Source: Candidatus Scatovivens faecipullorum (lineage in GTDB: Bacteria > Bacillota > Clostridia > TANB77 > CAG-508). Taken from it: a stretch of 64,000 bases of DNA. Below the pieces are notes generated by a model that saw only the letters and a program-made list of their open reading frames with translations, searched no databases and was not told the DNA's origin. Both the position numbers and the translations under genes were made by a program. Shown here one piece after another: positions 42,603-46,943 of this stretch. The stretch spans positions 12,615 through 76,614 of the forward strand of contig DVLG01000039.1 in the NCBI GenBank assembly GCA_018715625.1, in the 5' to 3' direction. Positions within the stretch are counted from its first letter, which is position 1. The number at the start of each line of letters is the position of its first letter.

Positions 42603-43277
42603 TTAATTTTTATTTTCACTTTCATCTTCAGTATTATCTTCTTCGTTGCCATCATCGTCTTCTTCGTCTTCTTCGTCCTCTTCATTATCCTCATCATCGT
42701 CTTCTTCATTTTCTTTTTTATCTGCGATATAATCTTTTATCTGTAAGAAAATTAATAATGCAAAAGGTATGAATATAATAATATAAAATGCTGTTAAATT
42801 ATTCATTAATTTTGTTAAAAGGCTTATAAGCACACATTTATATATAACCTTTCCATATATTTGATCTGCTGTTATTTGTGGATCTTCTGTATCATTCGCT
42901 ATACCTTTTGTATAAAATATTCTACCACCAACAGTTTCTTCAATTCTAACAATTTGGTGAGTTACAACTCTATCTTTAAATGTACCAACTTCTCCAAGAT
43001 AAGTTATATCATCCCCTACTTCTAATTTGTTAGTATCAACTTCTTTTATAATTAGTACATCACCCACATTATATTTAGGAACCATACTTCCTGTTGCAAC
43101 ATTAAAAATTCTAAATCCACCAACAGCTATTTCATTATTAGAAAATCTTTGAAGAGCTAAAACTGCAATTAGTAGTATTAATGCAATTATACATATTATT
43201 TTTATTATTGTTGTTATAATGCTAAAAATTTTTTTTGTATTTGTTTCTTCTTTCATCTTACCTCTTTTCACCTTCAC
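42603..43277 (-). CDS. sipW: Signal peptidase I SipW-type - paralog 2, with a poly-acidic C-terminal tail
   Basis: FNVATGSMVPKYNVGDVLIIKEV...VVTHQIVRIEE...YTKGIANDT. C-terminal TM, then ENEEDDDEDNEEDEEDEEDDDGNEEDNTEDESENKN. Confidence 0.7.
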   Translation of the reverse strand: MKVKRGKMKEETNTKKIFSIITTIIKIICIIALILLIAVLALQRFSNNEIAVGGFRIFNVATGSMVPKYNVGDVLIIKEVDTNKLEVGDDITYLGEVGTFKDRVVTHQIVRIEETVGGRIFYTKGIANDTEDPQITADQIYGKVIYKCVLISLLTKLMNNLTAFYIIIFIPFALLIFLQIKDYIADKKENEEDDDEDNEEDEEDEEDDDGNEEDNTEDESENKN

Positions 43278-44385
43278 TAATTTTCAAAACATATTTACTA
43301 ATATATTTTTTAAATATTTCTTGTACTTCTTTGTTAGAAGCCTGTCTCTTATACTTTATTATTTTATACTGCTTACTAACTAAGTTTTTTAGTTGTTCTT
43401 CAGTTAACCCTTCATTAACATCTATAGTTCTTTCAACCATATTTGCAATTAATTGTTCTATTATCTCTTTTTTATATTTATTTTTAATTTCTGGATTTTC
43501 AACACTTTGTAAAATCAAGTAATCAAGCAAAAATGTTTCATCAACTAACTTTTTTGCTTTTCCTCTTTCTTTATATTTTTTTTCTTTATTTTCCATGTCA
43601 GTTACTTTCATTTTATCCATTTCATTAATTAGAAAATCCCAAAGTTTTGCTGCATATTGGAAATTAACATTTTTTAATATAACATTGTTCTTTTTAAGAG
43701 GTGGCGTTATTAATTGTACATTTTGCTTTTCTAAAGTTTGATAAGTTGTTGTTAACATTAAATTACCAATTGTTTTTTCTAAAGTTTTTAATCTATTAAT
43801 CATTTCTTTAATTTCTTTTGTTCTTTTTGAAGATTCTGATGAAGAAGTCATTATTATTTGTATATCAACTTTATCTTTTCCGTTATAGGATTTTCCTTGA
43901 TAATCAACTTGTTTGAATTCTTTTGATGTTGCTAATTTTTCTTTTAAAAGTTTATTTTTTTCTCTTACAACAATTGCTCTCATTTTTTGAATTAGAGTAT
44001 ATATAAATCTGTTTTCATAAGTATTTAAAGTTTCTTCTTTAAATACATTTAATAATTTTCCTGGTTTAACATCACCATTTTCATCAACATCTTCAATAAA
44101 TCCTGCATTTTTAGATAAGTGTTTAATACTTTCAACTGTAACTTTTTTTATTTTTTCAATTTTTACTACTTCTTCTTCATTAACAATAAGCCTAGTGGGT
44201 GCTGCTAAAATATTTTCGATATATGGAATTGTCTTTTCCACTTTATCCATCCAAAGTCCTTCAATTTTGGGCTTTTCGGCTTCAATTTTAACGTCCATAG
44301 TTGAAGAAAGTCTTCTATTAAAATCATTTATTTTATTTTCATTAGAATCTGCATATAATTCAAAAACGTCTAAAATTTTATCCAC
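43258..44385 (-). CDS. Hypothetical partner protein of the McrB-like ATPase (McrC-position protein)
   Basis: 375 aa, cytoplasmic, K/E-rich. 16 nt downstream of the ATPase. Overlaps sipW by 20 nt. No clear PD-(D/E)xK motif visible by eye. Confidence 0.3.
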   Translation of the reverse strand: MDKILDVFELYADSNENKINDFNRRLSSTMDVKIEAEKPKIEGLWMDKVEKTIPYIENILAAPTRLIVNEEEVVKIEKIKKVTVESIKHLSKNAGFIEDVDENGDVKPGKLLNVFKEETLNTYENRFIYTLIQKMRAIVVREKNKLLKEKLATSKEFKQVDYQGKSYNGKDKVDIQIIMTSSSESSKRTKEIKEMINRLKTLEKTIGNLMLTTTYQTLEKQNVQLITPPLKKNNVILKNVNFQYAAKLWDFLINEMDKMKVTDMENKEKKYKERGKAKKLVDETFLLDYLILQSVENPEIKNKYKKEIIEQLIANMVERTIDVNEGLTEEQLKNLVSKQYKIIKYKRQASNKEVQEIFKKYISKYVLKISEGEKR

Positions 44386-44401
44386 TATATCCTCCTAAAA
44401 G

Positions 44402-45937
44402 TTATCCTAATTTCTTCAATCTTAATACATATTCTATACATTCTTTCATTTTACCTTTTCCAAATGTTTTATCTAGAAAAGTAACAAATCCATCAATTTC
44501 ATCTTTTATGTATGCAATATTTAATTGCTCAAATTTTCTTAAAATCTTTTTAGCTATAAAATAGTCTATTCCTTCAACTTCATCTCCACCACAAGCGACA
44601 TAAGCTGAGACAAATTTTCCCAAGTGACTTACAATACGGTTACCAAAAGCAACTTTGAAATGTTTTATAACAAAATCATCCATAGCAGTTATTTTTTTCC
44701 AATTTTCTTCTGAAACCTCATGATCTTCTCTTGCTTTCATGAAAAGTCCATCTAAATATGAGAAATTAACATCCATAGGTGGAGTATCCTCAGCTTCAAA
44801 AGCTTTTCCTTTATCATTAATATCTATAGGCATAGCTCTATCGTAAACTTTATCTGTTACCATAAATGTTGAATCATCATTATTGATAGTTCCAATATAC
44901 CAAGTATTTGCTGGAATTTTTATTTTACCATTTACTATATGTTTTGGATCGTTTTCCCATGGACTTGCCACAATTTCTATAATCCACTCATCTCTGTTTG
45001 GCATTTCTAGAATAGATAACATTTCTGCAAAATAATATTCAACACGAGCAAGGTTCATCTCGTCTAATATTACTGTGTATACATCATCTGTATATGAAGC
45101 TACATATAATGACTCAAGCAATTGAGTTTCATTAAATTTCTTAGTAAACTCGTTAAAATAACCAAAAAGTTCTGTTCTATCTCTCCAAGATGGTTGAACT
45201 GAAACAACACAAGAATCATGTTTCAAAAATTTTCCCCAAGCATAAGCAAGAGATGTTTTACCAGTACCAGAAATACCTTGAAGAATAACTAATTTAGTTG
45301 ATGCAAGTCCTGCCATAAATACTCTTATCATAGGTAATGTATAGTATAAATGAAGTCTAGATGCTGCGAAATTTCTAAATGCTATACATAATTCTTCTAA
45401 CGTAAAATCATTATTGTAATTTTGAACTTTATATTTAGCAAATTTTTTATCTACCAATGTAAGTCTTGGGAATCTAATTCCATCATCTTCTTCTAAAGCG
45501 TTCTCTCCTTCTTTTTTATCTTTCTCTATATCAACAGTAGCAGATTCATCTGGAGGTAAACCTAGTTGAGATACCTTCATTGCTAAAATTTCTTCCCTTT
45601 CTTTTGTCATTGTTGCAACTCTTTTATTTAAATCTGCAACTTCTTTCATCATGCTTTCTTGTTCAACTAATGTTTTTCTAAATCTAATATACTTTCTTAA
45701 AATTAAATATACTAATAAAATTGTTAATATTAATATAAGTGCTACTGCAATAATAGCTATTGCAACTAAAACCCATTCTTGTAATGAAAAATCATTCTTA
45801 TATTCTTTTATTAAATGTATATATTCTGGTATATCAAAAATTTGTCTAATTCCCTCAACAAATCCTGTAAGTATTGTTTTCAATCCTGAAAAAAAAGCAT
45901 TTAAAAATTCATATAAGAATCTTACATAAGTGTCCAT
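44402..45937 (-). CDS. Membrane-anchored McrB-family AAA+ GTPase
   Basis: N-terminal TM (WVLVAIAIIAVALILILTILLVYLIL) and a coiled-coil. Walker A LQGISGTGKTSLA. McrB-specific segment ILDEMNLARVEYYFAEMLSILE...IPANTWYIGTINNDDSTF...DKVYDRAMPIDI (compare McrB DEINRA...IPENVYIIGLMNTADRS...DYALRRRF). Confidence 0.6.
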   Translation of the reverse strand: MDTYVRFLYEFLNAFFSGLKTILTGFVEGIRQIFDIPEYIHLIKEYKNDFSLQEWVLVAIAIIAVALILILTILLVYLILRKYIRFRKTLVEQESMMKEVADLNKRVATMTKEREEILAMKVSQLGLPPDESATVDIEKDKKEGENALEEDDGIRFPRLTLVDKKFAKYKVQNYNNDFTLEELCIAFRNFAASRLHLYYTLPMIRVFMAGLASTKLVILQGISGTGKTSLAYAWGKFLKHDSCVVSVQPSWRDRTELFGYFNEFTKKFNETQLLESLYVASYTDDVYTVILDEMNLARVEYYFAEMLSILEMPNRDEWIIEIVASPWENDPKHIVNGKIKIPANTWYIGTINNDDSTFMVTDKVYDRAMPIDINDKGKAFEAEDTPPMDVNFSYLDGLFMKAREDHEVSEENWKKITAMDDFVIKHFKVAFGNRIVSHLGKFVSAYVACGGDEVEGIDYFIAKKILRKFEQLNIAYIKDEIDGFVTFLDKTFGKGKMKECIEYVLRLKKLG

Positions 45938-45953
45938 ATTTTACCTCAATCCT

Positions 45954-46943
45954 TTATATTTCTAATATTTTATCATTTTTGTATCTTTTCTTATTTACAT
46001 CATTAGTATCTGCAAATATACAGCCAAAAACTTCTGTTATTTGTAATTCGTCTTTTGTGAATTTTGGCATTTCACTATTAGTTACTAAAGCAAATTTAAA
46101 ACCTCTTTTAATTATTTCAAAGACTTCCTTTTTGTTTTTTACGAAATCTTCAAATTTTATTTCAAAATATATTTTATCTTGAGCAGCTTGATTTTCTAAA
46201 ATTTCTAGCAACTGTTCTAATTTCTTTTTCTTTTTTAATAAACTTTCAGCAAAATCTACTACATATATTCTACTAAAATTCCCATTTAATATTTCTTTTA
46301 AAACTTCATTTGCTATCATTGGATATTCAACAAATAGCCTATCTTCGCCTATTACATCTGTCTCAAAAGTTTCTTCTATTATTTCTTTGCTAAATATTTC
46401 TGGAAAATCAAAATTATATAAAAGCTTAACACGATACATAGTATCATCTAATTTCTTAAGTGTTATTTCAAAATCTTTCGTTGAATCATATAATTTCAAT
46501 AAATGATTTATTTTATTCAAATCTGATTCTACTAAATTTGAAAACTCTTTTATAAAGTTTTTTGTATCCGGATTTCTTAAATTGTATTTTTTTTCTCTTT
46601 TCTCTGATATTAATTTTATAACTTTAGATATTTCAACATTTTTTCTAACATAGTCAAAATAAAAGAAATATTGAAATAATTCTTGTGTATAATCTATAAT
46701 ATCTATTTTATCTGGAAGTTCGGCTCTTAAAGTTTCAGCTTTTACCTTTATAGCTTCATAAATTCTCCTATGAAATATTCTAATAGTATTATTTACTTCG
46801 TAGTTATAATATCTAGAATCGATATAGGCTTGTATGAGCTCATCAGCTACTTCTCTATCATATTTACTTTTTAATATCATGCTAAAATATTTCTTAAACC
46901 TTTTTTGTGTATCAGAAATATGTTTTTGAACTATATTATTCAT
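45954..46943 (-). CDS. Hypothetical cytoplasmic protein (329 aa) upstream of McrB-like ATPase
   Basis: No recognised motifs. 16-nt spacing to both neighbours. Confidence 0.3.
   Translation of the reverse strand: MNNIVQKHISDTQKRFKKYFSMILKSKYDREVADELIQAYIDSRYYNYEVNNTIRIFHRRIYEAIKVKAETLRAELPDKIDIIDYTQELFQYFFYFDYVRKNVEISKVIKLISEKREKKYNLRNPDTKNFIKEFSNLVESDLNKINHLLKLYDSTKDFEITLKKLDDTMYRVKLLYNFDFPEIFSKEIIEETFETDVIGEDRLFVEYPMIANEVLKEILNGNFSRIYVVDFAESLLKKKKKLEQLLEILENQAAQDKIYFEIKFEDFVKNKKEVFEIIKRGFKFALVTNSEMPKFTKDELQITEVFGCIFADTNDVNKKRYKNDKILEI

Follow-up and report, generated by a model that had tools for sequence, protein, structure and literature searches.

We describe three consecutive minus-strand genes, hereafter the trio, in a stretch of 64,000 nucleotides (the window) from Candidatus Scatovivens faecipullorum, an uncultured gut Clostridium (GenBank assembly GCA_018715625.1, contig DVLG01000039.1, positions 12,615 to 76,614 of the forward strand). 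The trio encodes proteins of 329, 511 and 375 amino acids (aa), the second McrB-like and the third McrC-like, and lies inside a run of genes for SipW-type signal peptidases and small secreted proteins. We propose that the trio is probably a module based on a domesticated McrBC pair that has become an integral part of a SipW-dependent surface-fibre or adhesin locus, in which it would act as a GTP-driven cytoplasmic regulator or motor. Purifying selection on this pair is very strong; the pair is anchored in the membrane and has lost its nucleic-acid functions.

The McrB-like protein and its partner

A preliminary description of this DNA had assigned the central gene of the trio (44402..45937) to the McrB family of AAA+ proteins on the basis of four motifs, and the assignment holds. 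All four are present in the 511-aa translation (LQGISGTGKTS, VILDEMNLARVEYYFAEMLSILE, IPANTWYIGTINNDDS and DKVYDRAMPIDI), and in a phmmer search residues 204-373 (170 residues) align with the E. coli McrB structure 6hz4 at E = 2.8e-4. The Walker A (GISGTGKT) and Walker B (VILDEMN) motifs, the MNTAD motif and an arginine pair (RR) are all in register in this alignment, with GTINNDDS of the 511-aa protein lying opposite GLMNTADRS of McrB. The conserved signature reads G-T-[IA]-N-x-D-[DE]-S-T, i.e. N-x-D followed by D or E, which is the shortened NxD variant that Bell et al. (eLife 2024, PMC11090510) use to define one major branch of the McrB GTPases. The NCBIfam McrB model PRK11331 matches at E = 6.8e-5 with 21.8 bits against an equivalog cut-off of 637 bits, and because this score is so far below the cut-off we regard the protein as a relative of the family and not as a McrB orthologue. 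The PADLOC model PDC-M26A matches at E = 2e-38, over the AAA core only.

From its N-terminus the protein consists of an amphipathic hydrophobic segment (residues 1-35), a transmembrane helix (residues 56-74/80; 19-residue Kyte-Doolittle mean of 3.43 for residues 56-74), a basic cluster (RKYIRFRK), a coiled-coil-like helix, an acidic variable linker, and the AAA+ core with its lid (residues ~160-511). The helix behind the membrane segment (residues ~85-125, EQESMMKEVADLNKRVATMTKEREEILAMKVSQLGL) is about 40 residues long and on direct reading shows a heptad-like spacing of hydrophobic residues, in agreement with the membrane helix and coiled coil given in the preliminary description. By the positive-inside rule, the basic cluster that follows the transmembrane helix would place the rest of the protein, and with it the AAA+ domain, in the cytoplasm. 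No match to a DNA-binding family was found in this N-terminus with Pfam or NCBIfam. An hhalign comparison of the transmembrane and coiled-coil region with E. coli FtsB gave a colinear but weak alignment (26% identity over 65 columns, pairwise E = 0.03, probability 1.6%), and a Pfam scan of the protein returned no DivIC/FtsB match.

Homologues of the McrB-like protein number more than 8000, the top 120 being full-length with 66-99% identity. Loss of the transmembrane helix among homologues had been raised as a sign against a membrane role; the helix is present in all 119 full-length orthologues, as are the NxD motif and Walker A. The 511-aa protein is, as judged from these features, an NxD-branch AAA+ nucleoside triphosphatase (NTPase) of the McrB family, tethered by one predicted transmembrane helix.

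The 375-aa partner had been singled out as a candidate McrC nuclease, and the first half of this suggestion stands while the second does not. In Pfam the protein passes the gathering threshold for DUF2357, the N-terminal domain of McrC (E = 3.4e-12), but neither a PD-(D/E)xK nor any other nuclease was found as a family, motif or fold by Pfam, PADLOC, PDB sequence and profile searches, or AlphaFold2 with Foldseek. Since DUF2357 is present and no nuclease family, motif or fold was detected, we regard the partner as a McrC homologue that has lost its endonuclease. It matched no PADLOC model, as was also the case for the 329-aa protein, and nothing in PDB searches with either the single sequence or a profile. 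The partner profile gave no hhalign signal against E. coli McrC, a comparison in which the template was a single sequence and the query had a low effective number of sequences. The AlphaFold2 model has a moderate predicted local distance difference test score (pLDDT) of 67 and retrieved nothing significant with Foldseek; its weakest part, residues 70-116, belongs to the block that is best conserved in the partner family (residues 59-135). The C-terminal third is helical and K/E-rich, with low pLDDT, and the homologue in one distant locus, L083, is a 623-aa protein with a long AEEARL-repeat coiled coil.

Conservation of the locus

We scanned one genome per GTDB species for the McrB-like gene and obtained 128 relatives, so that at least 128 species-level genomes carry it; 80 loci, in which the gene shows 60-96% identity, were kept. 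Where sequence is available, the order 340-aa gene, 329-aa gene, McrB-like, McrC-like, SipW, 262-aa gene is found in essentially all 80, and it is the same in loci L001 and L002. The 329-aa gene lies upstream of the McrB-like gene in 77 of the 80, a SipW gene follows the McrC-like gene in the same number (77/80), and the 340-aa gene is directly upstream of the 329-aa gene in 74; an opposite-strand 214-aa gene, the pair of 237-aa and 364-aa genes, and giant genes are nearby in most. The trio is thus retained inside the SipW loci of relatives, and SipW genes accompany the McrB-McrC pair in distant loci as well.

The McrB-like gene is the best conserved of the cluster. Across the 80 loci the median identity to the window protein is 66% for the McrB-like protein, 57% for the 237-aa protein, 44-46% for the SipW proteins, 41% for the McrC-like protein and 31% for the 329-aa protein, and in the 15 closest species the McrB-like median reaches 86%, compared with 85% for ClpB.

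Two readings had been offered for the position of the trio, namely a defence module inserted in the operon and a McrB-type motor recruited for fibre assembly or export, with mobile-element scars or absence from orthologous SipW operons as marks of the former. No scars were found, and the trio is kept in relatives. The flanks of the trio contain no repeats beyond short AT-rich chance matches and no mobile genes, flanking tRNA genes were not found, and there is no composition break between the trio and its surroundings. No McrB-like relatives were found in viral contigs, and plasmids gave only matches to the AAA core at no more than 40% identity, in which the N-terminus was not covered, and no full-length relatives. 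Because the trio matches its surroundings in composition, has a fixed synteny, lacks scars and a nuclease, is conserved at the level of ClpB and retains the transmembrane helix in every orthologue, we reject the inserted defence island for this lineage. The motor reading agrees with the conservation and synteny data, and remains a proposal. When loci were instead seeded with the 237-aa gene, the trio was found within 10 kilobases (kb) in 22 of the 34 that had enough upstream sequence.

SipW peptidases and candidate substrates

SipW-type genes were called with the NCBIfam model TIGR02228 (cut-off 51.85 bits). There are four in the window, three of them above the cut-off (70.6, 73.9 and 94.8 bits) and one, the 393-aa gene, below it. 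The 224-aa SipW has a second transmembrane helix and then a poly-acidic cytoplasmic tail of ~45 aa, and the 393-aa protein a K/E-rich, repeat-containing cytoplasmic tail of ~230 aa. The other three SipWs keep a THR(V/I) motif, with its histidine, and a GDNN motif; neither can be seen in the 393-aa protein, which looks catalytically dead and may be a pseudo-peptidase used as a scaffold.

The signal motifs that follow the signal-anchors, read from the sequences, are STYAWF, NTYAWF, STFSKY and STYSKY. The 364-aa protein carries STYAWFTA and scores just under the threshold of TIGR04088, the model of the SipW-cognate signal (17 bits against a cut-off of 19, E = 0.0048). The 203-, 211- and 214-aa proteins align as paralogues. 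The 237-aa protein, the second most conserved of the locus, is recovered in a distant lineage at E = 1.6e-46 and matches no known family; it has in common with the 364-aa protein the C-terminal motif W-(I/L)-E-G-(D/Q)-D-x-(D/E)-C, in which the cysteine is conserved, and in the window the two proteins both terminate in W-I-E-G-(D/Q)-D-x-D-C.

Distant relatives

An exhaustive search of 1.84 billion cluster representatives with the McrB-like protein yielded 8390 relatives at E <= 1e-3 and 771 at E <= 1e-30. The NxD motif is present in 132 of the 149 nearest 50%-cluster representatives. The N-terminal architecture of the 150 best representatives varies: 56 have no transmembrane helix (700-800 aa, like the PADLOC candidate PDC-M26A), 40 have three or more, 29 have one and 15 have two, the remaining 10 being truncated or fragmentary.

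The contexts of distant orthologues with one transmembrane helix cover 41-50% identity, and the McrB-McrC pair occurs with SipW in L083, L086, L087, L170 and L173 (43-50% identity). In L083 the gene order is GGDEF, EAL, 237-like, 364-like (the latter two at 3217-5136), SipW, McrB-like, McrC-like, SipW, a 76-aa open reading frame (ORF) and a membrane EAL protein, and in L086 it is SipW, McrB-like, canonical EAL, McrC-like. A SipW gene adjoins the pair in L087, L170 and L173, and the gene following the McrC-like gene is a SipW in L083 and L170. Homologues of the 237- and 364-aa proteins are found in L083, L087 and L088, in the last of these upstream of the pair. Because these distant loci keep SipW genes and 237/364 homologues beside the pair, the link between the McrBC-like pair and the SipW and substrate genes is old.

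Forms with four (L085) and two (L089) transmembrane helices occur as pairs with no SipW gene in view, and the L085 pair is a cassette among unrelated genes. In L089 (6692-14923) two tandem pairs, made up of McrB-like proteins (465 aa, and 493 aa with two transmembrane helices) and large partners (604 and 1141 aa), lie between a 1670-aa leucine-rich repeat protein and an unknown protein of at least 2193 aa, an arrangement suggestive of a wider association between membrane-anchored NxD GTPases and giant surface proteins.

The 329-aa protein and its cyclic di-GMP context

The 329-aa protein has few homologues (135) and carries no annotation. In its AlphaFold2 model (pLDDT 88, predicted TM-score 0.85) an alpha/beta domain comes after a helical bundle, and the ~47 best Foldseek matches in the PDB are all EAL domains (Bd1971 at E = 3.6e-4, FimX, RocR, MorA and LapD), with probabilities of up to 1.0 and TM-scores of 0.3-0.45 (0.45 for the FimX EAL domain). 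Sequence profiles did not support this fold search. Pfam EAL (PF00563) does not match the window protein and matches 3 of 37 orthologues weakly (E = 0.018), PDB searches with the single sequence and with a profile found nothing, and hhalign gave no signal for the family against the EAL proteins of L083 and L086 or for a 77-sequence family query against a three-sequence EAL alignment. In the family alignment A2, read by eye, GFKFALVTNS occupies the expected DDFG position, FEIKFED is similar to ExxE, and the barrel seems to lack its last two units. The C-terminal domain is thus predicted, by its modelled fold, to be a degenerate and shortened EAL-like domain, and since the DDFG position reads VTNS the protein is probably not an active phosphodiesterase.

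True genes of cyclic di-GMP (c-di-GMP) metabolism recur in or beside the McrB-McrC pair, and these provide an independent context for the EAL-like fold. In L083 the module is flanked by a GGDEF gene and by two EAL genes, one for a 287-aa protein and one for a 949-aa membrane protein (485-3098 and 11446-14295), and in L086 a canonical 325-aa EAL gene (3396-4373; Pfam 3e-53) separates the McrB-like gene from the McrC-like one. We found no paper linking McrB-like proteins to c-di-GMP in the literature searched.

Organisation of the locus

The window has a G+C content of ~25% and nearly all of its genes are on the minus strand; era, recO, ybeY, yqfD, hpf, dgkA and clpB are the housekeeping genes on either side of the whole locus (Table 1). 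The 375-aa and 329-aa proteins show 100% identity to NCBI proteins recorded under Candidatus Scatovivens faecipullorum. The spacing within the trio is as originally described, with gaps of 16 nucleotides between the 329-aa and 511-aa genes and again between the 511-aa and 375-aa genes; the gap between the 340-aa gene and the 329-aa gene is 15 nucleotides, and the 375-aa ORF overlaps the next SipW gene by 20 nucleotides if the GTG start of the latter is used. The trio forms genes 6, 7 and 8 of a ten-gene run (50955 to 41713). Upstream of this run lies a promoter-like site with a TG extension (51017-50989), and a consensus scan inside the run found no terminator-like site on the coding strand, the sole match (42863-42884) being on the opposite strand. 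The hairpin at 41629-41677 is a candidate bidirectional terminator that would close the ten-gene operon; it was not called by the consensus terminator scan.

Table 1. Features of the SipW locus in the window
Feature	Coordinates	Strand	Basis
Gene 1: degenerate SipW-like protein, 393 aa	49774..50955	-	TIGR02228 28.5 bits, below cut-off; comparison of the four SipW sequences
Gene 2: candidate SipW substrate, 211 aa, RSTFSKY motif	49138..49773	-	Translation; alignment A3 consensus TYAxY...IAPxxxGYF...Q
Gene 3: SipW-type signal peptidase, 158 aa	48649..49125	-	TIGR02228 E = 1.3e-20, 73.9 bits; Peptidase_S24 E = 1e-5
Gene 4: candidate SipW substrate, 203 aa, signal-anchor and S-S-Y-S-L-Y motif, C-terminal ...SKQ strand	48000..48611	-	Translation
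Gene 5: secreted or membrane-anchored protein, 340 aa, N-terminal signal-anchor; candidate SipW substrate	46959..47981	-	Translation; no family match
Gene 6: cytoplasmic protein, 329 aa, helical bundle (1-151) and predicted degenerate EAL-like C-terminal domain	45954..46943	-	Predicted fold
Gene 7: McrB-family AAA+ (NxD-branch) GTPase-like protein, 511 aa	44402..45937	-	Translation; PDB McrB match
Gene 8: McrC-like partner, 375 aa, DUF2357	43258..44385	-	Pfam
Gene 9: SipW-type signal peptidase, 224 aa	42603..43277	-	TIGR02228 E = 1.3e-19, 70.6 bits
Gene 10 (last): candidate SipW substrate, 262 aa, NTYAWF motif	41713..42501	-	Translation
Inverted repeat, 18-nucleotide arms, 94% complementary, 13-nucleotide loop, between convergent genes	41629..41677	.	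Repeat scan
Second transcription unit: 237-aa and 364-aa proteins	37682..39505	-	Translations; terminator-like hairpin 37659-37629
869-aa and 2424-aa ORFs, downstream of the cluster	27703..37534	-	Translation; kept beside the cluster in relatives
Fourth SipW-type signal peptidase, 203 aa, far end of the locus	24951..25562	-	TIGR02228 E = 4.8e-27, 94.8 bits; Peptidase_S24/S26

The 869-aa and 2424-aa ORFs overlap by 53 nucleotides in different frames (34925-34977, minus strand) and are probably one surface protein of ~3,290 aa split by a frameshift; the shift may be genuine or phase-variable, or may be an error of the assembly. Single genes hold this position in relatives (3187 aa in L002, at least 2511 aa in L001), and a Pfam scan found no domain in either ORF. 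The fourth SipW gene, ~17 kb from the trio, has as neighbours a 535-aa unknown protein and a DUF4116-repeat protein (24407..24934, E = 7e-66), the whole region spanning 24407-27185 on the minus strand.

Divergent from the promoter region of the operon, the plus strand at 51083-55444 encodes an extremely acidic, low-complexity protein of 1453 aa in which no domain was found; it is kept at the same position in 42 of the 80 related loci, with a median identity of 46%. Between the two fibre sub-operons, also on the plus strand (40928-41575), lies a gene for a 215-aa VCA0040-like (undecaprenyl-phosphate translocase-like) membrane protein, and since only L003, the closest relative, was found to have a homologue there, the gene looks like a recent insertion into the cluster. 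Fourteen consecutive co-directional ORFs of 146-805 aa (1233-15087, minus strand) form a second large block of unknown genes, with no Pfam match at E <= 1e-4 other than a weak ParA/MinD-like AAA_31 at 12554..13387.

Proposed function and alternatives

In McrBC, the textbook restriction enzyme that depends on GTP, six McrB subunits form a ring, and the N-terminal domain of McrC plugs the ring and activates GTP hydrolysis (Niu et al. 2020, cited in PMC11090510). If the trio serves the SipW locus in a comparable manner, the McrB-like protein would form a membrane-tethered hexamer in which the McrC-like plug triggers the GTPase cycle, and conformational work would reach the membrane machinery by way of the coiled-coil and transmembrane stalks and of the McrC-like protein's helical C-terminus. 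The targets would be the SipW peptidases, with their charged C-terminal tails facing the cytoplasm, and the signal-anchored subunit precursors, so that fibre subunits would be cleaved, extracted and polymerised under the control, or with the energy, of this cycle. SipW paralogues have a second transmembrane helix and long acidic or K/E-rich tails on the cytoplasmic side, and McrB and McrC homologues carry charged helical extensions. Such a device would be analogous, not homologous, to the PilB/PilC ATPase-platform pair of type IV pili, and the EAL-like protein would supply a regulatory input, possibly by sensing c-di-GMP in the way of the degenerate EAL domains of FimX and LapD.

FimX offers a precedent in which an inactive EAL domain controls a pilus assembly ATPase. 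We tentatively raise a more specific possibility, to which we attach much less confidence than to the general role, namely that the McrBC chassis was domesticated as the first known NTP-driven cytoplasmic motor or gate for the SipW-dependent, TasA-like surface fibres of Gram-positive bacteria, with the EAL-like subunit giving c-di-GMP input, as a non-homologous analogue of the FimX-PilB control of type IV pili. Fibres of the SipW/TasA type are not known to need an energy source for their assembly, and a dedicated GTPase would change this picture in a large group of uncultured gut Clostridia with reduced genomes. It would also mean that an immune GTPase motor, having lost DNA binding and nuclease, gained a membrane anchor and reached housekeeping-grade conservation in a fibre locus, was re-used for cell-surface biogenesis. 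The EAL-like subunit and the EAL and GGDEF genes in distant loci suggest a c-di-GMP connection that is testable and absent from the literature searched.

Several observations weigh against a role of the trio in fibre biogenesis. The known TasA-type fibres assemble by donor-strand exchange without an NTPase, and no NTPase linked to SipW/TasA fibres was found in the literature searched. The earlier naming of the locus as a SipW-fibre operon holds for its SipW part, with four SipW-type genes in the window, but the small secreted proteins, including 25 family members, do not match TasA/camelysin (PF12389) in Pfam or NCBIfam, and two profile searches of PDB sequences with these proteins matched no solved structure; the fibre itself is read from the SipW genes and the signal motifs. 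The EAL-like assignment of the 329-aa protein comes from a predicted fold with modest TM-scores and no profile support, in which the canonical EAL and DDFG motifs are not recognisable. In 12 of the 34 loci seeded with the 237-aa gene the trio is not within 10 kb. Rearrangement was shown in the one case checked, where L114 and L034 proved to be the same contig with the McrB-like gene ~19 kb away, and in the others, too, the trio may lie outside the 10-kb flank because the cluster is rearranged, which makes this test partly informative, supportive but not conclusive. In L172 a trio with 41% identity (721-8267, G+C 26.5%) is immediately preceded by phage genes for a DUF859 tail protein, a holin and an M23/LysM endolysin. 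It consists of a 381-aa relative of the 329-aa protein, a 500-aa McrB-like protein with a transmembrane helix and a 325-aa McrC-like protein (hidden Markov model matches of E = 1.5e-13 to the 329-aa family and E = 1e-13 to the partner), and there is no SipW gene on this 8.7-kb contig; either the trio occupies a phage accessory position, or a prophage has integrated beside the module. Finally, the roots of the family and the nearest annotated relatives of the McrB-like protein are defence systems, namely the PADLOC candidate PDC-M26A and the CoCoNuT branch.

These last two observations, together with the McrB/McrC ancestry, would fit a McrBC-derived membrane immune system, acting in a type IV-restriction-like manner or through abortive infection, that resides in or guards the pilus locus, for example by sensing phages that use the fibre as a receptor and then shutting down the fibre or the whole cell. 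We consider this explanation unlikely, though it deserves to be kept in view. Relatives with two or four transmembrane helices are indeed found as isolated gene pairs in unrelated surroundings (L085 is an example), and Bell et al. (PMC11090510) place CoCoPALM, the class that our locus matches (see below), among CoCoNuT-like systems; but the trio and the operon contain no nuclease, HEPN domain or other recognisable effector, and two of the three proteins match no PADLOC model. The absence of mobile-element scars and of viral-contig relatives, and the restriction of plasmid matches to the AAA core, also argue against it. Defence genes are usually patchy in distribution and evolve fast, whereas the McrB-like gene is conserved like ClpB and its synteny is kept across 80 species.

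We give little weight to the idea that the module serves another envelope process, either division or sporulation, through an FtsB/DivIC-like N-terminus, or the export or quality control of the ~3,000-aa surface protein. The colinear FtsB alignment, the FtsB homology reported by Bell et al., and the sporulation gene yqfD in the window could be read in this sense, but the similarity to FtsB is statistically weak and without a Pfam counterpart, and the basic cluster after the transmembrane helix predicts a topology opposite to that of FtsB, with the coiled coil in the cytoplasm. Giant proteins are indeed kept beside the cluster, and also beside the two-helix relatives of L089; the tightest and widest linkage, distant lineages included, is nevertheless with SipW genes and small signal-anchored proteins. 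We regard it as extremely improbable that the trio is a leftover of some former McrBC insertion, decaying or inactive and passively carried along. The McrC nuclease and the McrB DNA-binding domain have been lost, as a relic would predict, but Walker A, Walker B and NxD are intact in all 119 full-length orthologues, and the McrB-like gene, besides being the most conserved of the cluster, is found together with these partners in other lineages, where it shows 41-50% identity.

Comparison with known systems

The SipW-TasA/TapA system of B. subtilis and the SipW-BsaA/B/C system of C. perfringens resemble our locus in combining SipW with small secreted proteins that bear T-Y-A-x-F-like signal motifs, but their operons have no NTPase, and here there is no TasA/camelysin match and there are four SipWs, one of them degenerate, that bear long tails on the cytoplasmic side. 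FimX and LapD resemble the C-terminal half of the 329-aa protein in predicted fold, although there is no detectable sequence similarity and the domain measures ~175 aa as opposed to ~240 aa.

With the McrBC systems of E. coli and Thermococcus (PDB 6hz4, 6ut5, 6ut6 and 7vsr) the locus shares an AAA+ core with Walker A, Walker B and the signature loop, and a partner with the McrC N-terminal domain. It differs in having NxD instead of NxxD, a membrane anchor and coiled coil in place of the DNA-binding domain, a partner without PD-(D/E)xK, and a secretion and surface context without restriction-modification or mobile genes. The CoCoNuTs share the NxD GTPase branch, coiled-coil fusions and McrC homologues, but are, according to Bell et al., cytoplasmic and always associated with HEPN or other nucleases, their McrC homologues often being without an active nuclease, whereas the GTPase of our locus is membrane-anchored and has no nuclease beside it.

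The closest correspondence is with CoCoPALM, which Bell et al. name in three sentences, deferring the details to a forthcoming publication, and define as an NxD GTPase fused to an FtsB-like transmembrane and coiled-coil domain. No follow-up paper was found in the literature searched, and the eLife supplements available in text form do not contain CoCoPALM. The 329-aa EAL-like gene, the EAL and GGDEF genes of distant loci, ClpB-level conservation and the SipW tails find no mention in the covered portion of that text, so that the EAL-like subunit with its c-di-GMP context, the conservation of the McrB-like gene, and the charged cytoplasmic SipW tails together with the pseudo-SipW are possibly new details. 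The coiled coil on the McrC homologue is short and uncertain here, and long in L083. In the features that can be compared, our locus matches this class, named in 2024 and not characterised: it has an NxD McrB-like GTPase with an N-terminal transmembrane helix and a coiled-coil-like segment, an adjacent DUF2357 McrC homologue, and an association with genes of the signal-peptidase family, here SipW. As a compact and complete example, with ten probably co-transcribed genes and a second unit, it makes the CoCoPALM class directly testable by heterologous expression.

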